This document shows, piece after piece, positions 878 to 28,970 of a DNA stretch of 30,913 nt. Where the stretch lies: positions 1-30,913 of the IMG/VR virus record IMGVR_UViG_3300043775_000620. One strand, given 5' to 3'. The notes beneath the pieces were generated by a model. The model was not told the DNA's origin and did not search any database. It saw only the letters and a list, made by a program, of their open reading frames with translations. The DNA comes from a virus. Position 1 is the first letter of the stretch; each line of letters opens with the position of its first letter. Both the position numbers and the translations under genes were made by a program.

Positions 878-912
878 TTTATTTAAAAACAAGGTTTTAG
901 GTTTTTTGTATA
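878..912 (-). promoter_or_regulatory. Conserved bipartite upstream motif, copy 1 (TATACAAAAAA-N9-TTGTTTTTAAATAAA); candidate phage late promoter
   Basis: The 15-mer TTGTTTTTAAATAAA (minus strand, 892..878) lies 5 nt before ATG 872. The same 15-mer occurs at three other gene starts. This copy sits just downstream of terminator 917..940. Confidence 0.5.
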
Positions 913-2948: not shown

Positions 2949-3491
2949 TTATTTTAAATTATTATAATCTTCTTGGAATAACTCCCTTAATTTTTTCTTG
3001 TGTGCTTTTAGCGAGTGGAATATACTTACAAAACTTATTCCTGTTTCTTTTGCTAATTTACGCATTGATATATCGTTATCCCTATAAATTGTAAATAGCT
3101 TTTTATCGTACATGTCCCAACTGTTTACTTCCGCTTCGCATTTGGTTCTAAATTTATACCATTCAATTTCATAATCTTCATCAAAGTTATCTTCTATTGG
3201 TATATCAATTTGTTGTTCTGTTACAAACATATTAGTTTTATCAGTAACATATATTTTTTTATTTAAAGATTCCTCATTGTATTTATTATAAAATTGCGAC
3301 AAATATACTGAACGAATAACAATAAATAAATAACCTTTGTTTAGTTTACCATTTGTAAAGCATTTTTCTTCGCTTGAATATTGATGTAATTTTAAATATG
3401 TTTCTGAAACTATATCTTCATAGTAAGAGCCATCAAATATCTTTGCATATTCGAGAAGCTGATTATGATGTTGATATAATTTCTCTAACAT
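2949..3491 (-). CDS. Phage-encoded sigma-70 family (ECF-like) sigma factor
   Basis: Region-2-like YEDIVSETYLKLHQY and a region-4-like HTH (ISMRKLAKETGISFVSIFHSLKAHKKKLRELF). 180 aa. Confidence 0.6.
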   Translation of the reverse strand: MLEKLYQHHNQLLEYAKIFDGSYYEDIVSETYLKLHQYSSEEKCFTNGKLNKGYLFIVIRSVYLSQFYNKYNEESLNKKIYVTDKTNMFVTEQQIDIPIEDNFDEDYEIEWYKFRTKCEAEVNSWDMYDKKLFTIYRDNDISMRKLAKETGISFVSIFHSLKAHKKKLRELFQEDYNNLK

Positions 3492-3567
3492 TTTTTAAAA
3501 TAAATCAGGAATAGCCAAACCTGAATTAATATAATTTTATCGTAAATAAGAACGTTGCTATTTTTTA

Positions 3568-3575
3568 CAAATGTA
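3568..3575 (-). promoter_or_regulatory. Bacteroidota-type -7 box (TACATTTG) upstream of the sigma factor gene
   Basis: Matches TAnnTTTG on the minus strand in the 103-nt intergenic gap; TTTG elements lie 15 to 22 nt upstream. Confidence 0.4.
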
Positions 3576-3594
3576 TACAAAAAATAAATACAAA

Positions 3595-4719: not shown

Positions 4720-5552
4720 ATAAAATCTATTATTTGTTTAGGTAACCAATCGTGATTATCAACTTGAAAAGTTATATTTTCAAAAGATTGATTTCTTGAA
4801 TATTCGCATTTCGCAATAGTTCTTTCTTCATCTTTTTCAATAAATACAACTGTTTCTGCTTTCTTTAAAACTGAACTACCTACGTGACCTACTGGCTTTG
4901 CAGTACCGAAGTTCTTATGTAGTATTCCTGTGCAGTGCATTTTACCTTTCGCAGTCCATTGTAATAGTTTTTCAGTAAGTCCTGTTGATTGTTCTAAACT
5001 ATTAAAATCAGTTACTAAATCAACATAACCATCTATTGACATTAAACCTATTTTATTTTTAAAATCGCTTTCAAATACAATCCAATCTATAAAATCAAAT
5101 CTTTCTTTTGGACTATAAGCACGCAAACTAAAAGTTTTATAAAGTTCATAATTAGCACCCACCAATTCTAAAACACGTCTTTGTACTCTTTGAGTATGAT
5201 ATTGTGATTGTTCAGTATCAAATGAAATTACAAACTTGTCTGTTGAGTCGTGTCCTTGAATACTTGGATTATAAATATTTGATTTTCCACCAATGTAACC
5301 AGCTTCAATCATTGATTTAAAGAAAGTCTTTTTTGATTTTGAAGCACCTACAATACAACTAAAGTCACCATAAGAACCAAAAGGAATAGGATATTCTACG
5401 CCTTTATAATTTGAACTACCTATACTAATTGCTATTGGTTGCGGTTTAAGTTCTTCGCTTGGGTCTATTAATGAGTTATTAAGCATTTCTTTAAAGTCAA
5501 TACTTAAAGGTTCATTAATGTTTTTTTCTAATTCGTCAAAGTTTAAATTCAT
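4716..5552 (-). CDS. RecA/DnaB-like P-loop ATPase (putative replicative helicase or helicase loader)
   Basis: Walker A GASKSKKT, catalytic-Glu motif FDTEQS, Walker B LMSIDGY, then HKN and GHVGSS motifs as in DnaB C-terminal/AAA_25-type ATPases. Confidence 0.6.
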   Translation of the reverse strand: MNLNFDELEKNINEPLSIDFKEMLNNSLIDPSEELKPQPIAISIGSSNYKGVEYPIPFGSYGDFSCIVGASKSKKTFFKSMIEAGYIGGKSNIYNPSIQGHDSTDKFVISFDTEQSQYHTQRVQRRVLELVGANYELYKTFSLRAYSPKERFDFIDWIVFESDFKNKIGLMSIDGYVDLVTDFNSLEQSTGLTEKLLQWTAKGKMHCTGILHKNFGTAKPVGHVGSSVLKKAETVVFIEKDEERTIAKCEYSRNQSFENITFQVDNHDWLPKQIIDFI

Positions 5553-6759: not shown

Positions 6760-6767
6760 CAAATATA
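6760..6767 (-). promoter_or_regulatory. Bacteroidota-type -7 box (TATATTTG) for the replication operon
   Basis: Matches TAnnTTTG on the minus strand, just downstream of terminator 6782..6818. Confidence 0.45.
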
Positions 6768-7656: not shown

Positions 7657-7699
7657 AAAGATAAGATATTTAATTAATTAAGATTTTCAAATATAAGAA

Positions 7700-9875: not shown

Positions 9876-10030
9876 CTTTTTAAATCGTATTTAATTACTT
9901 CTTTTAGTTTTGGATCTGTATTATTTGCCACTTCAATAGCTTTCAATTTGCTGTCTTTTTGAATTTCGTAATAGGTCGGTATTCTTTTACCTACTGCTAC
10001 TATTGTTTTACGTTTGGATAATTTTCCCAT
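9872..10030 (-). CDS. Small hypothetical protein (52 aa)
   Basis: Hand translation gives MGKLSKRKTIVAVGKRIPTYYEIQKDSKLKAIEVANNTDPKLKEVIKYDLKR. Its stop overlaps the methyltransferase ATG (ATGA). Confidence 0.35.
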   Translation of the reverse strand: MGKLSKRKTIVAVGKRIPTYYEIQKDSKLKAIEVANNTDPKLKEVIKYDLKR

Positions 10031-10529
10031 ATTCTTTAAAATCTTCGTTAGTCCATTTTGTATAAAGCTTATCTTTAAGATATGTTTTTTTGTGTCTTAA
10101 ATTAGTAGCCACTTCTAAAATGTGAGGTCTTTTAATTTTTGGCTTTATTTCGTCTATTTTATTTTTTCTAATTGTTATAATGTTTGGTTTTGATAATCTT
10201 TTTACTTTAACTCTTGATGCATTGTAATCGTTAATTTCTTTTGTTTTTGCTTCTAAAAACTCATTTGATTTTTGAAGTAAAGACTTATCTTTATTTTGAT
10301 AGCATTCTAAAATCAATTTGAAATAAATATCATCTTTATAACTATTGTAAGTTCTTAAAATATAAAATATAGTGCTCCTATCTTTTTTAATTTTTTTAGC
10401 AATTTCTACAATACTCATATTTTCGATATTTTCTTTTGCATAAATAGCTCTTAAATAAATAAACAATTTGTCACGTTTATTTGTTGTTATGTCTATTCCG
10501 TAAAATTCTTTAATTTCAAATGGTGTCAT
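10008..10529 (-). CDS. DnaA domain-IV-like HTH DNA-binding protein
   Basis: KRDKLFIYLRAIYAKENIENMSIVEIAKKIKKDRSTIFYILRTY parallels the DnaA C-terminal pattern (R..aMYL....S..eIg....dHsTV). Confidence 0.45.
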   Translation of the reverse strand: MTPFEIKEFYGIDITTNKRDKLFIYLRAIYAKENIENMSIVEIAKKIKKDRSTIFYILRTYNSYKDDIYFKLILECYQNKDKSLLQKSNEFLEAKTKEINDYNASRVKVKRLSKPNIITIRKNKIDEIKPKIKRPHILEVATNLRHKKTYLKDKLYTKWTNEDFKEYGKIIQT

Positions 10530-11979: not shown

Positions 11980-11987
11980 CAAATGTA
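11980..11987 (-). promoter_or_regulatory. Leftward early promoter -7 box (TACATTTG)
   Basis: TAnnTTTG match on the minus strand in the divergent intergenic region. Confidence 0.5.
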
Positions 11988-12034: not shown

Positions 12035-12042
12035 TATATTTG
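12035..12042 (+). promoter_or_regulatory. Rightward promoter -7 box (TATATTTG) for the plus-strand island
   Basis: TAnnTTTG match on the plus strand, 22 nt before ATG 12064. Confidence 0.5.
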
Positions 12043-16244: not shown

Positions 16245-16622
16245 TTACCAACGTGCTTTTCTTCCTCTATGGTCGTAATGCGTGAAAGTAGGGTAAACTC
16301 CTACACCGCCTTCTTTCATTTTACCTTGTTCAATAAGTCCTTCAATTACTAAAGCCACTTCTTTAGGTGTCATTCCTGCAACTTTAATATCCGCAGCAGT
16401 ACCTCTTAAATGTTGGCTATCTTTTACAGCTCCAGGTAATTTAGCATTATATTTCGGACTTCTGTAACCGCTTGTAATTGTAATAGGTTTATTTATTGCA
16501 GTTCGTAATACTTCAAGATTTCGTGCAAGTTCAACAATATTTGAAAGTGCGCTGTTTGGAATATCTCCGCCATCTTTACACTTAAATTCTTCTAAACTAA
16601 AATTAGTCGTTATTTTTGCCAT
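16245..16622 (-). CDS. Endolysin, peptidase M15 (L-alanyl-D-glutamate / D-Ala-D-Ala peptidase-like)
   Basis: SGYRSPKYN...SQHLRGTAADI...THYDHRG matches the Zn-binding H..D...H signature of Peptidase_M15_3-like phage lysins. Confidence 0.85.
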   Translation of the reverse strand: MAKITTNFSLEEFKCKDGGDIPNSALSNIVELARNLEVLRTAINKPITITSGYRSPKYNAKLPGAVKDSQHLRGTAADIKVAGMTPKEVALVIEGLIEQGKMKEGGVGVYPTFTHYDHRGRKARW

Positions 16623-18047: not shown

Positions 18048-18055
18048 CAAATATA
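18048..18055 (-). promoter_or_regulatory. Bacteroidota-type -7 box (TATATTTG) upstream of the fibre gene
   Basis: TAnnTTTG match 32 nt upstream of ATG 18016. Confidence 0.4.
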
Positions 18056-18610: not shown

Positions 18611-20410
18611 TTATTTAGGTAAAAAGCCTTTATTAGGCATATCAATAGGTCTTTGAGAAACTATTTCAGGATTTTTTATAACGTATCCGTATTGCTCGGC
18701 TTTACGCCCTGCTATTTGTTTTGCTTTTGGTGAATTAACATCTATGTTTACATTTTCAAAACTTGCATAAACTTGTTTATTCCATCTATGATGGCAAGCT
18801 CCCCCGCCTTTATAAAACCATACATTTACTAAAGGACTTCCGTTAGGTCCAAAACCTTTTTTCTCTCCTTTAGAGTTAGTTCTAACCTCGTTTACTTCTT
18901 TATTTGACATTGCTATAATATCTTCTTTACGATATATTTTACCAGCGTCAATCATTTTTTGGCAAAACTTTCTACTTTTTAAAGTTGTTTCACCTGCGTA
19001 AACATATCGAGTTATAAAACGGACTCCGTCAATAGTTTCATCTTGTTCACTTTTTGAGTTTCCTCTTGCAGTACCGGTACTTACTAAATTGATTATTTTA
19101 GATAATAAACTTTGATTTGATTCTTTAGATAACAATTCATTTTCTGCATCGTCATTATCGTAATCAACTTCGCTTTCATCAATTAAAAGCCATTTATCAT
19201 TAGGTGTTTCACCTAAAGAAATTAAAGCATCAGCAACTGAATCATCTGAACTATTTTCACTTAAACAACAAGTATGAGCTGATAATTGCGTTCCTGTTTC
19301 TTCTGCTACTTGTTCAGAAGTTTGTGCATTCTCTAAATCAGTAAACTCTAAAGGTTGAATAGTTTTAAAGTATAATTTCAATTTAATATTGTTAACAACT
19401 AAAATAGTATCCAACGCTTCAATAATTTCTAATTGATAAGGTTTGATAACTAAATTATCATAAAGTAAAGTCGCTGTTTTTATTTCGTCTGCATTGTTAG
19501 AAAATCCACCGCCTGAATCCCTAACTCCTAAAAGCATAGGACTTGTAACTCTATGCCCTACAACTAATTTTTCAAAACATTCTTTTGCTAAATACTCATA
19601 GTGTTGTGGTGCATCGTTTAATGGTATATCAGTTACTTCCGTTGCATTTTCTTTGCTGCTATTAAACGATACAATTACTTTTTGACCTTTTGCACCTGTT
19701 AATTTACGTTTTACATCAGCTGAAATTTCTTCTCTTTTTTCTTCTGGCGGTATATTGTTATTAAAGTTTACAACTTTAGTACCACTAAAACCATTCATTA
19801 CATCGTTAATCAAATAGTCTGAAATTTCTTCTTCTAACTTTGCATAAGGTAACGCACCAGAATAATCAATCGGAGTGTAATAATGGTAACCACTTACATA
19901 TGGTCTTACAACATAAAGTTCAACTTCTTTTTTATTTCCAAAACCAAAAGCAGGTATTCTTTTTAATTCATCACTCGGTTTTTTATTTGCCCAATCTGGG
20001 TGATAATACCACGCTTCTATTTCGCCTTTATCGTTGCATTTTTCAGCACGTAAAGTATGCATTGGGAAGTGATCAACAAATTTAACCTCGCCCTTTTCAT
20101 AACCTACTTGCATAGCAGCCATTCCTAAAAGTTTACGTTCTAAAGCAACTTTTTTTAATGCGTTTGGCTTTATAATAGAAATCATTTTAGCGTACTCATC
20201 AGGTTTTTTATTAGCGTCTAAAGCACTAATGCCTTTTCCGTAAATCATATTACTACAACCTGTAATAATAGCGTTATTTGTGGTGCTATATAAATACCTA
20301 TCAATTAAAAACTGAAAGTAATTGTTATCTGCTCCATATTCCACAAAATCGCCTTTTTTACTTTCGTTAATTTGTGGAGAAGTATAAGCACTTAAATTTA
20401 ATACATACAT
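18611..20410 (-). CDS. Portal protein with a C-terminal MuF/SPP1 gp7-like head-morphogenesis domain
   Basis: 599 aa. The N-terminal ~380 aa are portal-like in size and composition, an acidic linker follows, and the C-terminus carries RKFCQKMIDAGKIYRKEDI...GGGACHHRWNK resembling the MuF-type Cx2(C/M)...H..C motif. Confidence 0.6.
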   Translation of the reverse strand: MYVLNLSAYTSPQINESKKGDFVEYGADNNYFQFLIDRYLYSTTNNAIITGCSNMIYGKGISALDANKKPDEYAKMISIIKPNALKKVALERKLLGMAAMQVGYEKGEVKFVDHFPMHTLRAEKCNDKGEIEAWYYHPDWANKKPSDELKRIPAFGFGNKKEVELYVVRPYVSGYHYYTPIDYSGALPYAKLEEEISDYLINDVMNGFSGTKVVNFNNNIPPEEKREEISADVKRKLTGAKGQKVIVSFNSSKENATEVTDIPLNDAPQHYEYLAKECFEKLVVGHRVTSPMLLGVRDSGGGFSNNADEIKTATLLYDNLVIKPYQLEIIEALDTILVVNNIKLKLYFKTIQPLEFTDLENAQTSEQVAEETGTQLSAHTCCLSENSSDDSVADALISLGETPNDKWLLIDESEVDYDNDDAENELLSKESNQSLLSKIINLVSTGTARGNSKSEQDETIDGVRFITRYVYAGETTLKSRKFCQKMIDAGKIYRKEDIIAMSNKEVNEVRTNSKGEKKGFGPNGSPLVNVWFYKGGGACHHRWNKQVYASFENVNIDVNSPKAKQIAGRKAEQYGYVIKNPEIVSQRPIDMPNKGFLPK

Positions 20411-20412
20411 AA

Positions 20413-20742
20413 TTATTCAAATATTTTATATTCGTTTGTTGTAACATGTTCAACGTAAGCATCTTTATTTATACTATACGTTTCTAAATTTTGATTAGTA
20501 CAAAATATCTTATCTCTATAAACGATATTTGTACCATCTTTAATAGTCAAAGTGTAATATTTATTTTCTTTAATTGGAAAAATTACAGAAGTAGTAACAA
20601 AATATTTACTAATTGAAAATGTAGCATCAATTTCAGTCTCAATATTTGTTTCTTCATCTCTTAAAACAATAGTGTCCGCATCACTACCATAGATAATAGC
20701 GTTTAGTGTTTGTGCGGTTGATTGCTCTTTTAAAATAATCAT
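20413..20742 (-). CDS. Hypothetical beta-rich protein (109 aa)
   Basis: Intact ORF preceded by the conserved upstream motif, 2 nt upstream of the portal gene. Confidence 0.6.
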   Translation of the reverse strand: MIILKEQSTAQTLNAIIYGSDADTIVLRDEETNIETEIDATFSISKYFVTTSVIFPIKENKYYTLTIKDGTNIVYRDKIFCTNQNLETYSINKDAYVEHVTTNEYKIFE

Positions 20743-20750
20743 ATTACTTA

Positions 20751-20785
20751 TTTATTTAAAAACAACAATTTAACATTTTTGTTAA
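20751..20785 (-). promoter_or_regulatory. Conserved bipartite upstream motif, copy 2 (TTAACAAAAA-N10-TTGTTTTTAAATAAA)
   Basis: 15-mer at 20765..20751 (minus strand), 8 nt before ATG 20742. Confidence 0.5.
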
Positions 20786-20817
20786 TTGAATTTTATAAAT
20801 TTGTAAAAACTTAAATT

Positions 20818-21036
20818 ATGGAACCAAAACTTAAAGCAGTACAAATCATAATGAAAATGCAATTTCAAAAAGAACCTTTATCTTTTGCACAAGGTAAAAA
20901 ATGTGCATTAATAGCAGTAGATGATATAATAAAATACACAAGAAGCGTAAATACTATGCCACCAAATTGTCAGAAAATAGATAAAAATACAAAAGAGTAT
21001 TGGTTGAAAGTCAAACAAGAAATAGAAAAGTTATAA
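20818..21036 (+). CDS. Hypothetical protein (72 aa), lone plus-strand gene in the structural region
   Basis: Intact ORF ending at a bidirectional terminator, convergent with the tail-tube-like gene. Confidence 0.5.
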   Translation: MEPKLKAVQIIMKMQFQKEPLSFAQGKKCALIAVDDIIKYTRSVNTMPPNCQKIDKNTKEYWLKVKQEIEKL

Positions 21037-21069
21037 AAAAAAGCCTACTAAATTAATAGTAGGCTTTTT
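21035..21069. terminator. Bidirectional rho-independent terminator
   Basis: A8-AGCCTACTA-AATTAA-TAGTAGGCT-T5, between convergent genes. Confidence 0.8.
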
Positions 21070-21089
21070 AAATTCAAAACTATGAAAAA

Positions 21090-21617
21090 TTAAGAACCTG
21101 AAACCACTGTAAATCCTGCAGCCGTTAAAGTGTCGCCAATAAAGTTAGCAGGCGCTTGCTCTTGACCTGTAAGCGTTAAAGTATAACCGCTTAAATCTCC
21201 CATTGCGCCACCTGTAACGATTGTACCACCTGTAACCTCGCATCCGTGTTTTAAACCTGCATAAAAGAAATTTCCGTTATTATCTTCTACGATAACTTGC
21301 GGACGACCATAAGCCATAAGTTTCAATTCTTTATGGTCTTTAACAGTCAACTTTTTAAAAGTTAATTCTAAAACTTGTTCGTAAAATGTAGTTCCGTTTT
21401 CTCTTGAACTATTAATATTTTGAGTAAAGGTACTTGCACCTTTTAACTCGTATTTGTAAGCAGTTGGAGTACCTGCAACCGCATCGATAACATCCGTATT
21501 AGTTACATCGTAAGTGTATCCTGTTGCATCGCCATAATTAACGAAGTAAACATTTTTTAAACCACCTACGCTATCCTTACAAACTTCTAATCTTCCTAAT
21601 GATAAATCACAAGCCAT
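21090..21617 (-). CDS. Putative major tail (tube) protein
   Basis: 175 aa and beta-rich, with VGGLKNVYFVNY, TFYEQVLELTF, GRPQVIVEDNNGNFFYAGL and GYTLTLTGQEQAPA patterns reminiscent of siphovirus tail tube proteins. It lies immediately after the capsid gene. Confidence 0.45.
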   Translation of the reverse strand: MACDLSLGRLEVCKDSVGGLKNVYFVNYGDATGYTYDVTNTDVIDAVAGTPTAYKYELKGASTFTQNINSSRENGTTFYEQVLELTFKKLTVKDHKELKLMAYGRPQVIVEDNNGNFFYAGLKHGCEVTGGTIVTGGAMGDLSGYTLTLTGQEQAPANFIGDTLTAAGFTVVSGS

Positions 21618-21633
21618 ATTGTTTATTTTTTAT

Positions 21634-21661
21634 AAAAAAAGGGAAGGCATTTTACCTCCCC
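21634..21661 (-). terminator. Rho-independent terminator after the major capsid gene
   Basis: Minus strand GGGGAGG-TAAAATG-CCTTCCC followed by T7. Confidence 0.75.
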
Positions 21662-21685
21662 TTCTTAAAGTTAATATTTAATTAA

Positions 21686-22618
21686 TTACGCTGGAGTATA
21701 TAATACGATTTCAGAACCGATACCATATTGAACACCTGCAGTAAATCTCATAATTACATTTACAGTTTGTGCTCCTGTCACTTCTGCTTGGTCAATTAAT
21801 CTTACCTCATTCATATCATTTAGTAAACCTGTACCAAAGTATAAATTTGATTTTTGAGCAGCCATCATATAGTTGTTAGCTAATCCGTTTGCAACAAAGA
21901 TTTTAACTCCGTCAAAAGATAATGAACCATTATTAAACCATTGTGTTCCTTGTGCGTTAGTTCCGTTTGCTCCTAATCCTGAAGCTCCAAATCCACCTAA
22001 AGCACGAACGTATGCTCTTGCAACATTTTGAGAAACGTAGATATATAAATCCTCTTTTCCGTAAAGTGCAGCAGGAATAGCATCAACCACCTTACCTAAT
22101 TCAGCAATAACGTTTGAAGCAGTAACAGTTGTACCTACTACATCAACTACAGTTGCATCAGCAGTAGCTAAAGGCACAAATCCATCAAATTGCCCTGTAG
22201 TAGCGTTAGCACCTCTCCAAATTGAAACCTCCATTGATTCAGCAACTTTAGCTGAAACGTGTCCAATTAAATAATCAGCAAATGATTTTGGTAAATCTCC
22301 AAAAGCAGACATTCCCATTTCAATAGATTGCCAAGTACTTGCAAGGTCTTTTTTACATAATTCTAAATTTACTTGAAATTCTTCAGGGGTAATTACTCTT
22401 TCAGTTAAAGTAATTGTAGAAGTTGGGTCAAAAGCACAAGTCGCATTTTTTACGATAGCATCCGTTGCTAAACGTTGGATAACTGATTTGTACTTTACGT
22501 TTGGCATTACTTCAATCCCACCATTGTCGATAGTAGGTGCTGATAATAATGCAGCAGATATGTATTTCTTTGAAAACTCACCTGCATAAGTTGTTGTGAT
22601 ACTTGTTGTAGTAGCCAT
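21686..22618 (-). CDS. Major capsid protein
   Basis: 310 aa with a typical MCP composition (A/G/T/V-rich, few Cys). It is preceded by a scaffold-like gene and followed by a strong terminator, which implies high expression. Confidence 0.7.
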   Translation of the reverse strand: MATTTSITTTYAGEFSKKYISAALLSAPTIDNGGIEVMPNVKYKSVIQRLATDAIVKNATCAFDPTSTITLTERVITPEEFQVNLELCKKDLASTWQSIEMGMSAFGDLPKSFADYLIGHVSAKVAESMEVSIWRGANATTGQFDGFVPLATADATVVDVVGTTVTASNVIAELGKVVDAIPAALYGKEDLYIYVSQNVARAYVRALGGFGASGLGANGTNAQGTQWFNNGSLSFDGVKIFVANGLANNYMMAAQKSNLYFGTGLLNDMNEVRLIDQAEVTGAQTVNVIMRFTAGVQYGIGSEIVLYTPA

Positions 22619-22636
22619 TTTTTTTTATTAATTTAT

Positions 22637-23185
22637 TTAGTTAGCAATTTTACTCATTACTTTGTCGAAAGTTGTCAATACTCTATTTTGTGAGTATAAG
22701 ATTTTTTCAACGTTTGGTCTTGCATCAGGGTTATGCGTTAAAGGTTGAGCAGATAATTCTACTTCTTTAACTTCTTTCATAGACGCTAATTCTGTTTTCA
22801 ATGCTTCGATTTCAGACTTTAAAGCATCTACATCTTCTTTTGAAAAATGCGACTCTTTAACTGTTGATTCGATTACTTTTTTAGGTGCAGTAGGTTCAGC
22901 AGCTTGTTCAACTTCTACTTCTACTTCAGGAGTTTCCTCTTGTGTAGGTGTAGCTTCTTTGATTTCAGCAATTTCACCCTCAACTGCAACAACTAAAATC
23001 ATTCCGTTATCAAGAATATACTCACCTATTGGTAATGCAACTCTATCTTCACCATTAACAATAAACACGGCTTGACCTGCTTCGAACATTTCTGCTTCGA
23101 TAACAGTACCATTGTCTAAAGTCATTTGCTCTAATTGGATTTGCATCCCTAAAAGCTTTTTGATTTCTGTTAGTACGTTTGACAT
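22637..23185 (-). CDS. Putative scaffolding protein
   Basis: An acidic PE-rich linker (EETPEVEVEVEQAAEP) plus a coiled-coil C-terminus; immediately upstream of the capsid gene and preceded by the conserved motif. Confidence 0.45.
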   Translation of the reverse strand: MSNVLTEIKKLLGMQIQLEQMTLDNGTVIEAEMFEAGQAVFIVNGEDRVALPIGEYILDNGMILVVAVEGEIAEIKEATPTQEETPEVEVEVEQAAEPTAPKKVIESTVKESHFSKEDVDALKSEIEALKTELASMKEVKEVELSAQPLTHNPDARPNVEKILYSQNRVLTTFDKVMSKIAN

Positions 23186-23195
23186 ATTAATAATA

Positions 23196-23242
23196 TTTAT
23201 TTAAAAACAAGGTTTGTTTAATGTTGTTGTATTTTTTGTTAT
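23196..23242 (-). promoter_or_regulatory. Conserved upstream motif, copy 3 (ATAACAAAAAAT-N20-TTGTTTTTAAATAAA; longer spacer)
   Basis: 15-mer at 23210..23196 (minus strand), 10 nt before ATG 23185. The upstream half, 23242..23231, is identical to that of copy 4. Confidence 0.45.
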
Positions 23243-23626
23243 TTATTGTAAATCTTCAGCTATTGCTTTTTTAGCATTATTACTTAAATTAGCAACTCTT
23301 TCTATTGCATCATCATAATTTTTAGGCTGTGGTAATTTTGAAACATCAATACCTATATCTTTTGCTTTTGCTATAAAATTTGTTTTATCACTTAAAAGTT
23401 CTCTTTGAATTCTATCTAACATTTCAATAGCTTTTGGAGTTACTTTTTTAGCTTCTTGTTTCATAGCAAATATTTTATTTGCAAAATCTAAAACAACTTT
23501 ATGATTATCCTCGGCTTTTTGAAGTTGTGTTTTAATATCTGCAAAATCTGCTAATTCAATATTATGCGTTCCTAATTCTGTTTTAGTAGATAATTTACCA
23601 AATACGTTTTTTTCTTGTGGTGTCAT
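23243..23626 (-). CDS. Hypothetical helical protein (127 aa), head module
   Basis: Intact ORF between the Cys-rich small ORF and the scaffold candidate. Confidence 0.6.
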   Translation of the reverse strand: MTPQEKNVFGKLSTKTELGTHNIELADFADIKTQLQKAEDNHKVVLDFANKIFAMKQEAKKVTPKAIEMLDRIQRELLSDKTNFIAKAKDIGIDVSKLPQPKNYDDAIERVANLSNNAKKAIAEDLQ

Positions 23627-23629
23627 TTT

Positions 23630-23818
23630 TTATCCGTTTACTCTTGTTATTACTCTTACTCCATTATTTTCTGTAATGGTTACATTATCTACTCCTGTAG
23701 TTTTGCCAATTCCTTGATTTTGTAAATCGCCATTACAACATTCTTTACTATAAGTATCGTCATCACATAGACAACCACGCTTACCACCTTTTGGACTTGT
23801 TTTACTTTTTGTTTTCAT
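23630..23818 (-). CDS. Small Cys-rich basic protein (62 aa)
   Basis: KRGCLCDDDTYSKECCNG motif; overlaps the end of the protease gene by 17 nt. Confidence 0.5.
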   Translation of the reverse strand: MKTKSKTSPKGGKRGCLCDDDTYSKECCNGDLQNQGIGKTTGVDNVTITENNGVRVITRVNG

Positions 23819-24395
23819 ATTTATTTATTATTTGTTTTATTTGTTCGATAACACTCGGTTGTTTAGATAGTTGTTTCTTTTCTTCTAATTTATCAGCAAA
23901 GTAACCTTCTAAAGAAAATCCTTTTACTTTTCCCGTTTTCACGTAGTCATTCCAAATAGTATCATCTTCAACTTTTACTGAAGCCATCCACGAACCTACC
24001 GGAACTGATAAATTGTAAATTGCACTTTTATCTTTTTGCGTATCTTCTACAATCCAACTTTCAACAACAGTTAAACCTTTAATTTCTTTGTTGTGTTCTA
24101 AAGTCCAATTATTTTGATTACCATTTTTAAAGAATAATTGACTCGCTTTGTTTACTGTGTCTTTTGAAAAGTATATGTAGTACTCATCCTCTCCGTTACG
24201 TCTGTAAATAGGTTTTTCAGGAATTAAAACCGCACCCATTAAAATGCGTTTTTCCTTACTTACTTCTGCAAGTTTAATTTCTTCTGACTTTAACGCTACG
24301 AAATTAGATTCGATTGCAGGAGTTGAAACCACTGAAATAGCATCAACACCACTTAACTCATCTTTATCGTCGATAATTAATTCGATTAAATTCAT
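23802..24395 (-). CDS. XkdF-like putative prohead serine protease (Peptidase_S78_2-like)
   Basis: LMGAVLIPEKP...TLEHNK...VVESWIVE...GSWMASVKVEDDTIWNDYVKTGKVKGFSLEG follows the XkdF-family pattern. Confidence 0.65.
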   Translation of the reverse strand: MNLIELIIDDKDELSGVDAISVVSTPAIESNFVALKSEEIKLAEVSKEKRILMGAVLIPEKPIYRRNGEDEYYIYFSKDTVNKASQLFFKNGNQNNWTLEHNKEIKGLTVVESWIVEDTQKDKSAIYNLSVPVGSWMASVKVEDDTIWNDYVKTGKVKGFSLEGYFADKLEEKKQLSKQPSVIEQIKQIINKYENKK

Positions 24396-24403
24396 TTTTT
24401 TTC

Positions 24404-24438
24404 TTTATTTAAAAACAACAATTAATATTTTTTGTTAT
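24404..24438 (-). promoter_or_regulatory. Conserved bipartite upstream motif, copy 4 (ATAACAAAAAAT-N8-TTGTTTTTAAATAAA)
   Basis: 15-mer at 24418..24404 (minus strand), 8 nt before ATG 24395, downstream of hairpin 24482..24507. Confidence 0.5.
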
Positions 24439-24481
24439 ATTTGTGCTTTCCATTTTAGATTTTTTGAGTTATTAATTATTA

Positions 24482-24514
24482 AAGCCACTTACCTGAGAGA
24501 GTGGCTTTTTTTTT
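24482..24514. terminator. Stem-loop terminator between the tape measure gene and the head operon
   Basis: AAGCCACT-N10-AGTGGCTT (8 bp). A T9 run follows on the plus strand; on the minus strand an A9 run precedes it and TTTAATAATT follows. Confidence 0.55.
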
Positions 24515-24515
24515 G

Positions 24516-24530
24516 TACCCTATAAGGTAT
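24516..24530. repeat. Near-palindromic 15-mer TACCCTATAAGGTAT, copy 1
   Basis: Exact repeat of 24556..24570, spaced 40 bp away. Confidence 0.9.
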
Positions 24531-24555
24531 ATTTTAATTTAATTTGTTTACATTA

Positions 24556-24570
24556 TACCCTATAAGGTAT
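24556..24570. repeat. Near-palindromic 15-mer TACCCTATAAGGTAT, copy 2
   Basis: Exact repeat of 24516..24530; abuts the tape measure stop codon. Confidence 0.9.
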
Positions 24571-26600
24571 TATCCTAAACTTGCGTTACTTACTATATTC
24601 CTATCTAAACTTTGTTGCGTAGTTACATTATTTGCAACTACGTAAGCCTGAACAGGTTGCTGATTTCCTAACGTTTGTGCAATTTGATTTACTCCGCTAT
24701 TACCTACAACATTGAAACTTGGTGCAGGAGCGCCACCACTCGGAGTATTTGCACCACCTGCACCACCTGCTGAACCACCGCCAACTGCTGATAAGGCTTT
24801 TGCAGTTGCGGCTAAATTGGCAGCTATTCCAATACCTGTTGATATATTGTTAAAAGCTATTACAGGTGCTGCACTTGCTCCACTTGACGCAATCGCTTGC
24901 GGTGTTGCTAATGCTCCAATATTAGCTTGATTATTTGCTATAATCATTTTACCTATACCGATAGCACTTTCAGCAATAATAGCGGCCTTTTGAACACCCT
25001 TACTTTTTTCAAATAAACCTTTAAGAAGTCCTACGCCTTGTAATGCAACATCTAATCCTTGTTGTTGTATAGCGGCTTTTTGTTCCTCTTTTGCTCTTTC
25101 AATTTCAACTTCTTTATCTGCTTTTGCTTTTAAATCTTCTTGTCTTGCAATTGCTTTTTCGGCTTCTGCATTCCAATAGGCATCCTCTTTTTCTTGGTCT
25201 TCTTTTTTAAATTTATCTTGTAACTCTTTTTCTTTTGTGCGTTGTGCTTCTTTTAATGCAGTTGTATCTTTTCCGTATTTTTCCGCTTCTGCAATTAAAT
25301 CAGTATATTGCTTTTGAATTTGCAATAATTCTTCTGCTCTACGTTCCGCTTCTGTATCAATTTCACCTTGTCTAATTCTTTCAAGTGCTTCTGCTTTTTG
25401 TTTTGCTAATTCAATAGCCTTTTCATTCGCTTCTTTTTGTTTAGCTTGTGCGTCTTTAGCTGCTTGTGCGTCAATATTATTTAATGATAGTTGTAAACCT
25501 GCTTTATCATTCTTTAATTTTTCTAATCCTTTTTTAGCTTCTTTCTGAACTTCATCTGCTTTTTTTCTTTCCGCTTCGGGGTCGAAAATTAAACTTGCAC
25601 CCTTATTAATTAAATCATCAAAACCTTTAGCGAGTCCAAAATTTTGCCCTAAAGCATCCCCAACAGCATCTATACTACTTAAAAGAATAGATAAAGGCAT
25701 TTGAATAAATTTTATAATACCCGTAAGAATATCTTTGTTTCTTTGCGAAGCTGCTATTTGTGCCTTTGCAGTTATTTCGTTTTGTGCAATTTGGTTTTCA
25801 GTAGCTTTTATTACTTGGTCTGTTTGAGCAATCTTTAATTTTAAAATATCCTTTTCGCTCTTACCTTGTAACTTTAATATATTTTCTTGCCCACCTATTG
25901 CGTCAAGTTTTCCTTGTTCAGCGGTTAAATTTGTAGCCGCTAATTCATTAAGTTTTTCTTGTTCACTACTTACGCCACTTACAGCACTTTTAATGTCATC
26001 CCAATAAGCAACAACAGCACCCAAAGCTAAAACTAAAAGACCGATACCTGTTGCAGCTATTCCTGTTCTAATCCCAGCAAGTGCTACTTTAGCAGAAACA
26101 CCCAACGCCCTGAACGCTACCATTCCCTCACGTACACCACGTACACCCTCTGCAAGTGCCATAGCTCCGTTAACTTGTATTAATGCTTTTTCAAGTTGCT
26201 CACTTTGTCCGCCTGCTAAAGCCATTGCTCCCTGCACACCTGCAAAAGCAGAAGTAGCACCTTGCAAAGCACCACCTAACTTTGTGTCAAATGTAGTAGC
26301 CGCTGCATCAACAACCATATCGGTTTGCATTTGCACACGTCTATAATTACCAACCGAAGCAAGCAAATCTTTATACTCTTGACTTGCTGACTGACCTGCT
26401 AAAGCTAATTCATATAGTCTGTCCTCTGCTTCGCCCATTCGAGCAGTCAAAGGTTTTAAATCACCGTAAACTTCCTCAAAAGATGCGTTTACATCGGTTG
26501 CAGACTTATCAACTTTTTTTAGTGCCTTATCTAAATTATCTAAACCGCCTACGGCTTGGAGCGTGTTAACATCTATTTCTATTGTCTTTGTAATTGCCAT
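24570..26600 (-). CDS. Tail tape measure protein
   Basis: 676 aa. Contains Gly/Ala-rich hydrophobic segments (GIAATGIGLLVLALGAVVAYW), long K/E/A/Q coiled-coil tracts, and a G/A/S-rich C-terminus. Confidence 0.8.
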   Translation of the reverse strand: MAITKTIEIDVNTLQAVGGLDNLDKALKKVDKSATDVNASFEEVYGDLKPLTARMGEAEDRLYELALAGQSASQEYKDLLASVGNYRRVQMQTDMVVDAAATTFDTKLGGALQGATSAFAGVQGAMALAGGQSEQLEKALIQVNGAMALAEGVRGVREGMVAFRALGVSAKVALAGIRTGIAATGIGLLVLALGAVVAYWDDIKSAVSGVSSEQEKLNELAATNLTAEQGKLDAIGGQENILKLQGKSEKDILKLKIAQTDQVIKATENQIAQNEITAKAQIAASQRNKDILTGIIKFIQMPLSILLSSIDAVGDALGQNFGLAKGFDDLINKGASLIFDPEAERKKADEVQKEAKKGLEKLKNDKAGLQLSLNNIDAQAAKDAQAKQKEANEKAIELAKQKAEALERIRQGEIDTEAERRAEELLQIQKQYTDLIAEAEKYGKDTTALKEAQRTKEKELQDKFKKEDQEKEDAYWNAEAEKAIARQEDLKAKADKEVEIERAKEEQKAAIQQQGLDVALQGVGLLKGLFEKSKGVQKAAIIAESAIGIGKMIIANNQANIGALATPQAIASSGASAAPVIAFNNISTGIGIAANLAATAKALSAVGGGSAGGAGGANTPSGGAPAPSFNVVGNSGVNQIAQTLGNQQPVQAYVVANNVTTQQSLDRNIVSNASLG

Positions 26601-26722: not shown

Positions 26723-28970
26723 TTTGTATAATTGGTATTTGTATCGTTTCACTTGTGCCATCATTTAACGCCCATTTGCCTTTGATATATCCTATCCTTT
26801 CAGAGCCTGTTGCGTTTGCACTTATTGAAACATTAATTGTTTCGTTATCAAATTTAGTACCTAAAGTGTAACTTATCCACGCTTCATCAGGAGTTTCTAA
26901 AATTATCTTTTCCCAATCCGAAAGTAAAAGCATAGCTTCAATAGTTTGTGCTGTATTATCAACTTGGTAAAAAGATTCTAAAGAGTATCTATTGCCTATC
27001 GGAACTTCTCCAACTCGATAATCAGTAAGCAATTCCATTGTAGTCTCTCCACTTGTTAAATCGGTTGTCATTTTATTTATAGTGTACCTTTTATCACGAA
27101 TTATAATTCTATCGTTTAATTTAATATCAATCAACTCTACTGGATTGAAGTAACACTTTACAATTACTAATCTACTTTTGATATTGAAGATATTACCTAA
27201 ATAGTTTTCATAATGTCTTTTGTAAAGTCCGTTTGAAACGTTTGATAAAAACCACGTGCTTATCTCTTCACCCCAATTTAAAGTAAGAATAGTTCCGTTA
27301 TTGTAATCGTTTGAAAATCTTCTATACTGAACAATATGTTGATGACCGCCCGTTAATAAATCAATTCTAATATTTGGAGTTACGCCTTGCACTCCATTAT
27401 CGTACATTAATAATGGCTTTGGTAAGTAGTTTGCTAAATCAATCTTTTTAAAAGTAATAGTTTGAAAGTTACTATTTGACTTTCTTTCGTACATAGCATT
27501 CTCAAAAGGTAACTCTACGCTGAAAGTTGAACTTTCTAAACTATCAATTTGCTCATAGGCTAAATCCCCATAAGAGAAATTACGAGTTGACAAAAACAAT
27601 TCATCGAATTTAGTATTTAATATGTTTTCAGATTTTTGATATTTAAAATTAATGTTTTTATACATCGAAGTTTTTTTCAATTCAATGTCATCTGAAATCA
27701 CATTAGCACTTATGTCGTTATAACGCCCATTGTTGTAATATAACTCTAACGGAATTAACTCGTAGGTTGTTTCATCTTGCGGAATAATAACAAGGTTAAA
27801 CATTTTTATTAACCCTGTAATTAAATCAATTATTTTTAAGTCAGGAGCATATCCACCTATATCGATTGTACTTGCAATAGTTTGGCTTGGACTTGTTGCA
27901 GTGTATGTTATACTTGTTGCAATTCCTATATTGTAAACAAGTGTAGTTGTAAAAGAAAAACCACTTTGCGAACTTATATAAACTGAATATTTATCGTTTC
28001 TGTTTTGAGTTGTTATAGGTCCTGAAAAAAATCCACGTGTGCCACTACTTCCAACTACGTTAGTAAACGAGTTATCTAAAACTCCATTCTTATAAATTAG
28101 TATGTCGTATGGTTGCGTGCTTGCAGTTGTTACTGCTATACCTATGTATCTATTATTATTATATCCAGACCTTGTTAATAAACCTACTTCATCAGTAGCT
28201 AAATCTAATTCAGTAAAACCTGCACTACTCTTTGCAGTAAAATTCACTTTCAAAGGTGTTAACTTTTGGCTAAAACTTTCAGAGTTTTTAAACAACATCC
28301 ATAACTTTGTAAATTGTGGATAGTCTAAAAATGCACCCGTAAAATTTAAGTCATAAGTGTCCGATATCTTTTGCATAATAAAAGATAAAGGTATTGCAGG
28401 AAACAAACTATTCCATTTTATAGAACCTGTATTAATCGTTATATCGTTAGTTCCGCCTGTATTATAATCGTAAATCCTATCGTGTGCAAATAATGGATAA
28501 GATACATTGTAAGCATTGCTTGTAATTCGATTGATTACTTCAGTACTTGTAAACGTATGGTTTAAACTAGTAAAATCTAAATTAGCAAGTTTATCCTCTT
28601 TTAAAATATCTTTTATATTCTTTGCCTTGCCATAAAATACAATAGAATAGGAATCAACCATATTATCTTTATACTTCACATCGTTTAAAGCAAATGCACC
28701 ATCTCTGAAAGTACGTGTGTCAATTTCAATATATCCGTTATATTTTACCCTATGGTCAAAACCTCCATCAATACTACTTTCGTACCAATGCTTAAATATT
28801 TCATTGTTAGTAGTACTTGCTGGAATAGTGAAACTTTGTGTAAAATCAGTCTTTGCTTTTGACACATCGGCAATATCTTGAACAGATGAAGTAACGCTTA
28901 TTTTTTCGTCTTCAAATAACTCAATACGTTTAGCTATTCCATCAACATAAATGTAAAGTGCTACTATCAT
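26715..28970 (-). CDS. Large tail/baseplate structural protein (751 aa)
   Basis: The N-terminus IELFEDEKISVTSSVQDIADVSKAKTDFTQSFTIPASTTNNEIF resembles N-domains of phage tail-tip/hub proteins; the remainder is beta-rich and N/S/T/Y-rich. Confidence 0.55.
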   Translation of the reverse strand: MIVALYIYVDGIAKRIELFEDEKISVTSSVQDIADVSKAKTDFTQSFTIPASTTNNEIFKHWYESSIDGGFDHRVKYNGYIEIDTRTFRDGAFALNDVKYKDNMVDSYSIVFYGKAKNIKDILKEDKLANLDFTSLNHTFTSTEVINRITSNAYNVSYPLFAHDRIYDYNTGGTNDITINTGSIKWNSLFPAIPLSFIMQKISDTYDLNFTGAFLDYPQFTKLWMLFKNSESFSQKLTPLKVNFTAKSSAGFTELDLATDEVGLLTRSGYNNNRYIGIAVTTASTQPYDILIYKNGVLDNSFTNVVGSSGTRGFFSGPITTQNRNDKYSVYISSQSGFSFTTTLVYNIGIATSITYTATSPSQTIASTIDIGGYAPDLKIIDLITGLIKMFNLVIIPQDETTYELIPLELYYNNGRYNDISANVISDDIELKKTSMYKNINFKYQKSENILNTKFDELFLSTRNFSYGDLAYEQIDSLESSTFSVELPFENAMYERKSNSNFQTITFKKIDLANYLPKPLLMYDNGVQGVTPNIRIDLLTGGHQHIVQYRRFSNDYNNGTILTLNWGEEISTWFLSNVSNGLYKRHYENYLGNIFNIKSRLVIVKCYFNPVELIDIKLNDRIIIRDKRYTINKMTTDLTSGETTMELLTDYRVGEVPIGNRYSLESFYQVDNTAQTIEAMLLLSDWEKIILETPDEAWISYTLGTKFDNETINVSISANATGSERIGYIKGKWALNDGTSETIQIPIIQNA

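Follow-up and report, generated by a model that had tools for sequence, protein, structure and literature searches.

Phage-encoded sigma factors that read late promoters of their own are a classic theme, represented by SPO1, T4, phiEco32 and 7-11. The late promoters of T4 consist of TATAAATA, lack a -35 element, and are read by gp55 together with gp33 and the sliding clamp (gp45). Bacterial extracytoplasmic function (ECF) sigmas of group 4 read two-box promoters, such as GGAACTT-N16-TCAAA for sigmaE and TGAAAC-N16-CGTA for sigmaW. In Salmonella phage 7-11, the sigma factor gp47 reads bipartite late promoters of the form GTAAtg-N16-aCTA, and in phiEco32, gp36 serves middle and late promoters through a single element, tAATGTAtA, with transcription starting 6-8 bp downstream (PMC8948821). 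Promoters of the primary sigma of Bacteroidota are built differently again, with TTTG at -33 and TAnnTTTG at -7, and 87% of the leaders of Flavobacterium johnsoniae are longer than 10 nucleotides (nt), with a mean of 33 nt (PMC6847099). Here, we describe a bipartite element that precedes four gene units in IMG/VR record IMGVR_UViG_3300043775_000620, an uncultured phage whose complete virus record of 30,913 bp is the stretch we analyzed (the window), together with a sigma-like protein encoded in the same genome. In the literature we searched, there was no description of sigma-dependent late promoters in Bacteroidota phages; a phage sigma with late promoters is a familiar strategy, apparently not yet described for this phage group.

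The downstream half of the element is the 15-mer TTGTTTTTAAATAAA, which occurs in four exact copies in the window, all on the minus strand. An earlier note on this DNA had reported four such copies 5-10 nt before ATG codons, and we found them at the same coordinates, every one intergenic (in the gaps 873-930, 20743-20817, 23186-23242 and 24396-24569). One hundred dinucleotide-preserving shuffles of the window gave zero copies. The window holds no copy with one mismatch, and matches with two or three mismatches are at chance level (32 found versus 32.7 expected). Exactly 13 nt upstream of all four 15-mers lies (A/T)ACAA, and the spacer sequences differ among the copies, giving a bipartite element, AACAA-N13-TT(G/A)TTTTTAAATAAA. 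The upstream half-site described in the earlier note is thus real. That description had, however, treated the copy at 23196 as an exception with a distant half-site, ATAACAAAAAAT, which is not conserved in relatives; this copy is not displaced, as AACAAC at 23228-23223 stands in the normal register.

We refer to the four sites as putative late promoters 1 to 4, in the order in which they are met on the minus strand. Promoter 1 (24404..24436) comprises AACAA at 24436-24432, the 13-nt spacer and the 15-mer at 24418-24404, and ends 8 nt before the ATG at 24395 of a prohead-protease-like gene (23802-24395; phrog_24921, 4e-54, and phrog_3017, head maturation protease). Promoter 2, which is internal (23196..23228; AACAA at 23228-23224, 15-mer at 23210-23196), ends 10 nt before the ATG at 23185 of a scaffold-like gene recognized by PHROGs (22637-23185), behind which lies the probable major capsid gene (21686-22618). 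Promoter 3 (20751..20783; AACAA at 20783-20779, 15-mer at 20765-20751) is 8 nt from the ATG at 20742 of a gene for 109 amino acids (20413-20742), followed by the portal gene (18611-20410). Promoter 4 (878..910; TACAA at 910-906, 15-mer at 892-878) is 5 nt from the ATG at 872 of a gene for 224 amino acids (198-872; phrog_32199) downstream of the terminase operon, and probably also drives tail genes across the contig end. All four genes are on the minus strand. Two structural readings of these sites were tried and rejected: AACAA...TTGTT as a palindrome or hairpin, as relatives keep AACAA while TTGTT changes to TTATT or TAATT, and an RNA structure, as the four copies fold differently and, the terminator hairpins apart, no better than shuffles.

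A motif search in the genome and in related phages returned the four exact window copies and, in dozens of related uncultured phage contigs, the element at the same gene junctions, with a 13-nt spacer that varies freely. These junctions lie before the pre-portal small gene, the protease gene and the scaffold gene, and after the terminase operon; some lineages have sites at additional junctions. Among 80 portal-homologue loci of 60-98% identity, in-register matches to the core plus ACAA number 133 on the gene strand versus 9 on the opposite strand. Sites orthologous to promoter 1 stand ahead of MNLIEL genes and those orthologous to promoter 2 ahead of MSNVLT/MSNVIT genes. For promoter 3, we gathered sites upstream of the pre-portal small gene by protein start alone; of the 61 distinct upstream sequences, 53 fit the motif and the remaining 8 carry it in degenerate form. 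Promoter 4, with its TACAA, is kept in L081-L092 and in G001, G003 and G005. A logo anchored on AACAA alone shows two conserved blocks and a 13-nt spacer without information, the spacer being 13 nt in all four window copies and about 100 distinct sites in relatives, with information near zero. Within the orthologous sites, AAC is near-invariant, and a purine occupies position 3 of the 15-mer in every case, with A for G in many relatives. In the near-complete relatives G001 and G005, every core match with 0-2 mismatches is on the gene strand with an open reading frame (ORF) 5-19 nt downstream, and G003 has three 0-2-mismatch sites with an ORF at this distance plus two 2-mismatch matches without one. 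The remaining matches in these three genomes have, nearly all, 3 mismatches, and the majority have no ORF behind them. Many relatives (e.g. L033 at 8947, L073 at 3223 and L043 at 12307) carry an extra site, with the -35 variant AACGT, within the final portal codons (...LFLNK) and just ahead of the next gene; the window lacks this site because its portal gene overlaps the next gene.

The four 15-mer sites stand ahead of structural-gene units only, on the gene strand only, and at three of them a promoter is needed in any case, as two lie behind terminators and one behind a divergent gene (20818). Both terminators had been called in the earlier note, and both are present. The first, an intrinsic terminator that ends the sigma/terminase operon (hairpin 943-920, minus strand), is directly upstream of promoter 4. 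The second, a strong hairpin at 24481-24508 (region z = -3.4) at the end of the tail/tape-measure unit and upstream of promoter 1, is terminator-like on both strands, with the cleaner T-tract on the plus strand. The element is also unlike the TAnnTTTG boxes of the genome, as had been claimed. Such boxes are intergenic and lie ahead of early genes and the sigma gene (3568-3575, 6760-6767, 7688-7695, 11980-11987, 12035-12042 and 18048-18055), and no TAnnTTTG, the -7 box of sigmaA, is visible on the gene strand ahead of the ATG in any of the four 15-mer genes. TAnnTTTG is not enriched genome-wide (73 found versus 60 expected), and the boxes are meaningful by their intergenic placement only. An E. 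coli-type sigma-70 scan of the window gave fewer matches than shuffles, with a consensus that is uninformative for a Bacteroidota host.

Between ninG and the terminase genes, the window encodes an ECF-like sigma factor of 180 amino acids with sigma2 and sigma4 domains (2949..3491, minus strand), which we propose as the reader of the four promoters. Its ORF contains a region-2-like EDIVSETYLKL and a C-terminal helix-turn-helix. The Bacteroidota ECF sigma model TIGR02985 matches it over its full length with E=1.2e-5, at 25.6 bits versus a curated cut-off of 126. A profile of its homologues finds region 2 of SigR in the PDB with an E-value of 0.015, and several homologues bear the JGI label 'sigma24 family'. 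The AlphaFold2 model of the protein has a mean pLDDT (predicted local distance difference test) of 79, and in a Foldseek search of the PDB with this model, 50 of 50 among the matches listed involve sigma factors, with the ECF sigmas L, H, E, AlgU, W and K in the lead. The best match is 6dv9_F (E=7.5e-4); the matches are full-length, and their global TM (template modelling) scores are low (0.3-0.4). The gene is present in exactly one copy in all five near-complete relatives (96-100% by CheckV), and it shares contigs with motif sites. Its upstream gap of 103 nt contains a host-type (Bacteroidota sigmaA) -7 box, TACATTTG (3568..3575, minus strand), and the close relatives L081, L082, L084, L086, L093 and L094 likewise have a TAHHTTTG box, 87-94 nt ahead of the ATG of the sigma gene.

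Two further observations concern this gene. Its leader (3492-3594, minus strand), between the TACATTTG box and the ATG, contains a motif, ACGTTCTTA, that is conserved in relatives, and behind it a hairpin whose tail is rich in T, TCAGG...CCTGA-TTTATTTT in the window and CCGCTT...AAGCGG in others; this could serve to time the expression of the sigma, as an attenuator or operator. Compared with most of its homologues (162-170 amino acids), the window sigma has an insertion of ~18 amino acids in the interdomain linker (residues about 78-95), the sole low-confidence segment of the model (pLDDT <50, residues 75-98).

The nearest cultured phages are the Nonlabens (Persicivirga) phages P12024S and P12024L (portal identity 35%). 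At the same genomic position as the window sigma, P12024S encodes gp33, annotated as PF04542 (Sigma-70 region 2), and hhalign relates the window sigma family to gp33 with 95% probability (E=2.5e-8; 23% identity). The pattern AAAC-N16/17-CGTTA is found 9 times in P12024S versus 0.94 expected, 7 times directly ahead of gene starts. The seven genes, one of which is the small gene ahead of the portal gene, start with AAAACAAA-N-(T)CGTTAATA-N4-ATG; their AAAC-N16/17-CGTTAATA sites (146-171, 2998-3023, 5379-5404, 21248-21273, 23929-23953, 25168-25193 and 26769-26794) end 4 nt before the ATGs of gp01, gp05, gp08, gp35, gp41, gp44 and gp45. An ECF -10 box has a CGT or GTC core some 16-17 nt past AAC. 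P12024S has AAC...CGT at the same gene junctions, with a complete CGT at C+17 (counted from the C of AAC), and its sites, with AAC as -35 and CGT as -10, show the ECF layout of the textbooks. The window block reads TGT, with its G at C+18, and many relatives have TAT. By site geometry, the late mRNAs of P12024S are predicted to be leaderless.

Other complete relatives, from more distant lineages, vary the downstream half in their own way. In G010, the element reads AACAA-N15-TTGTATATAT-ATG, and its AACAA-N15-TTGTAT(A/T)(A/T)AT-ATG sites, at 1825, 11919, 12724, 15045 and 17794 (L170/L171), have the ATG directly behind the -10 block. G006 and G009 have AACA(G/T)-N13-TTGTTTT(A/T)(T)AAAAAA-N5-7-ATG, so that AACA(A/G/T) is kept across all three. 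AACAA begins 30 nt before the ATG in G010, 32 nt before it in P12024S and 39-40 nt before it in the window clade. The family thus shares one -35 half, each lineage has a -10-side block of its own, and the promoter always abuts the start codon. At sigma loci of 35-43% identity (L121-L160), we found no window-type motif within 6 kb on each side; the variants came from whole genomes. Inside the window clade, the -10 block shows no clear co-variation with sigma identity, and differences appear only between distant lineages.

Collectively, these data make it likely, in our judgment, that the four sites are one class of late promoters, used by host core RNA polymerase with the phage sigma and giving very short leaders. 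The earlier note had put forward a phage-specific late promoter class with ECF-type architecture, and this is supported by boxes at fixed spacing, strand specificity, restriction to structural units, a sigma gene behind a host-type box, and the AAC...CGT sites of P12024S. In the model we favor, host RNA polymerase with its primary sigma would transcribe the early genes from TAnnTTTG-type promoters, among them the sigma gene, from the box at 3568-3575, with the terminase genes that follow. The ECF-like sigma would then join the host core polymerase, its sigma4 domain, the C-terminal helix-turn-helix, reading the AAC-containing -35 box and sigma2 opening the T/A-only block that starts at T(G/A)TTT. 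This would switch on four units: the protease unit, the scaffold and capsid genes, the small gene with the portal gene, and the 224-amino-acid gene with the tail genes.

The ECF geometry known from sigmaE and sigmaW promoters and from structures of ECF holoenzymes puts the start about 28-30 nt past the C of AAC and ~11 nt past the G of CGT. Both anchors would place the start in the window at A13-A15 of the 15-mer, which would then span roughly -13 to +2 and include the -10 element, the discriminator and the start site. That the whole 15-mer is conserved could be because this entire stretch is melted and contacted. The predicted leader is A-rich and about 6-13 nt long in the window clade, and about 0-3 nt long in P12024S and G010, which fits the proposal of near-leaderless mRNAs.

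Several points weigh against this model. The sigma assignment draws on sub-threshold sequence matches (TIGR02985 at 25.6 bits versus 126, PDB profile E 0.015) and a fold with low TM scores (0.3-0.4). Every relative examined has both the sigma and the motif, which leaves no contrast to tie one to the other. The -10 block of the window lacks the ECF hallmark CGT, and many relatives have A for G at position 3. A translational role, too, could account for how strongly AAATAAA is conserved and how closely the motif is tied to the ATG.

If the element is a promoter, its reader might still be a host factor, either a host ECF or other alternative sigma, or sigmaA assisted by a phage activator at AACAA. 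Bacteroidota genomes have many ECF sigmas of the TIGR02985 type, the family nearest to the phage protein, and the phage has other small proteins with possible DNA-binding features, such as that encoded at 10008-10529 (a weak match to HTH_38); the link between the phage sigma and the motif is one of co-occurrence only. However, the downstream block changes with the phage lineage and its sigma (CGTTAATA in P12024S, TTGTATATAT in G010, TTGTTTTTAAATAAA in the window), and the sigma gene holds its position from the window phage to P12024S even at 23% identity, which together argue for a phage-encoded reader. The sites also lack the sigmaA -7 box, and we regard a host reader as unlikely.

It is less likely still that the 15-mer works mainly in RNA, be it as an operator or enhancer of translation or as a site of processing where highly expressed late genes begin. 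In favor of this, the motif keeps close to the ATG (4-10 nt, mostly 6-7), and AAATAAA falls in the -14 to -10 zone, where the other 48 genes of the phage show a Bacteroidota-type A-rich profile, as they do at -3. Bacteroidota do without Shine-Dalgarno pairing and use adenines at -3, -6, -12 and -13 (PMC6847099). Against this, translation gives no role to the conserved AACAA box, fixed 13 nt upstream across a free spacer, and a T-run with a purine at position 3 is atypical of translation start regions. The four copies have no RNA fold in common, and the sites that follow terminators need promoters anyway. The alternative left open in the earlier note, a translational or antitermination element, thus finds no support as the main function. 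Given the A-rich positions shared with the other phage genes, the A-rich 3' half of the motif may help translation too, and a minor role of this kind is compatible with a promoter. Finally, an antitermination site, or a recombination or module-boundary site, with no transcription start is very improbable: two copies do lie behind terminators and identical short junction sequences could favor module exchange, but PHROGs and Pfam scans of the window show no Q-like or N-like antiterminator gene, the site at 20783 lies behind a divergent gene and not a terminator, and strict strand specificity with a fixed distance to the ATG is unexpected of recombination sites.

The genome around these sites has a G+C content of 30% and nearly every gene on the minus strand. 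In addition to the genes named above, PHROGs and Pfam scans identified a large terminase (1079-2284), an endolysin (16245-16622) and a tape-measure-like gene (24570-26600), as well as an Erf-like annealing protein, two methyltransferases, NinG and an RNA ligase. Because its nearest cultured phages infect Nonlabens (Persicivirga), the host of this freshwater phage is most likely a member of the Flavobacteriia. A DNA search of the phage collection with the window gave zero matches, and tblastn in cultured phages with the window sigma or P12024S gp33 as query found nothing outside the Nonlabens phages. The family is abundant in lake and marine viromes, with at least 591 relatives confirmed in IMG/VR by portal and at least 438 by sigma.

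A few features near the late promoters stand apart from them. A lone plus-strand gene for 72 amino acids (20818-21036), with its own TAAATTTG box (20796-20803), lies between a bidirectional terminator (21037-21089) and promoter 3. Close relatives, e.g. L001, have a T-rich, terminator-like stretch directly upstream of the equivalent of promoter 3, and by this comparison the 72-amino-acid gene looks like a small insertion. Directly behind the probable capsid gene, in 21618-21685, is a terminator-like hairpin, GAAGGGGAGG...CCTTCCC-TTTTTTT; the gene at 21090-21617 begins 22 nt past this hairpin and has no recognizable promoter of either class.

We put forward more tentatively, as an idea that could well prove wrong, that the whole family of Flavobacteriia siphophages expresses late genes from promoter cassettes fused to the start codon, with mRNAs that would be leaderless in P12024S and G010 and carry a 6-13-nt leader in the window clade. 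If this is true, late phage mRNAs enter Bacteroidota translation by a 5'-end-dependent route unlike that of host mRNAs, and the sigma with its promoter forms a compact pair, independent of host promoters, that is usable as a genetic tool in Flavobacteria. Bacteroidota have unusual promoters and ribosomes that ignore Shine-Dalgarno sequences, and the fusion of promoter to start codon, an interesting feature of this system, raises the question of leaderless or short-leader translation in these bacteria. The analysis yields a precise promoter consensus and a candidate sigma; with the motif, the late operons of these uncultured phages can be annotated by one simple rule, and the lineage-specific -10 blocks under a constant -35 box are a natural series for studying how sigma specificity evolves.

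How, then, does this system compare with those already described? With the sigmaA system of Bacteroidota it shares the host-type boxes carried by the early genes and the sigma gene, but the four sites do not fit that system. Host leaders average 33 nt (PMC6847099), against at most 5-10 nt between motif and ATG at the four sites. Positions 6-13 of the 15-mer, TTTAAATA, match the T4 late element at 7 of 8 bases, and the proposed role, turning on late structural genes, is the same; unlike in T4, however, the window element has an obligatory -35 box, and PHROGs scans of the window show no genes for gp55, gp33 or the clamp. As proposed here, phiEco32 also redirects host core polymerase to A/T-rich, phage-specific elements with a phage sigma, and the G010 variant TTGTATATAT resembles the TGTAT core of the gp36 element. 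gp36 has no region 4, though, and its promoters have no -35 box, whereas conservation in the window element is highest in its -35 box, AACAA.

Like the group 4 ECF promoters of bacteria, the window sites have AAC in the -35 box and a spacer of rigid length (from AAC to the G of TGT, 17 nt), and the sigma has two domains; P12024S has the full AAC...CGT. The window differs in that its -10 block is TT(G/A)TTTTT, not CGT or GTC, and runs into an invariant AAATAAA, and in that its sigma is phage-borne; no anti-sigma gene was recognized in the window. Of the systems characterized so far, phage 7-11 is the nearest analogue. It is an unrelated podovirus of Enterobacteria with other boxes, and its starts have been mapped and its sigma dependence shown in vitro; the window promoters, by contrast, abut the start codon. 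Nevertheless, 7-11 and, as we propose, the window phage both combine a small sigma-70-family factor of their own, its C-terminus resembling region 4, with bipartite late promoters of fixed spacer (about 16 nt in 7-11) ahead of structural units, and in both the early genes and the sigma gene itself are read by the primary sigma of the host.

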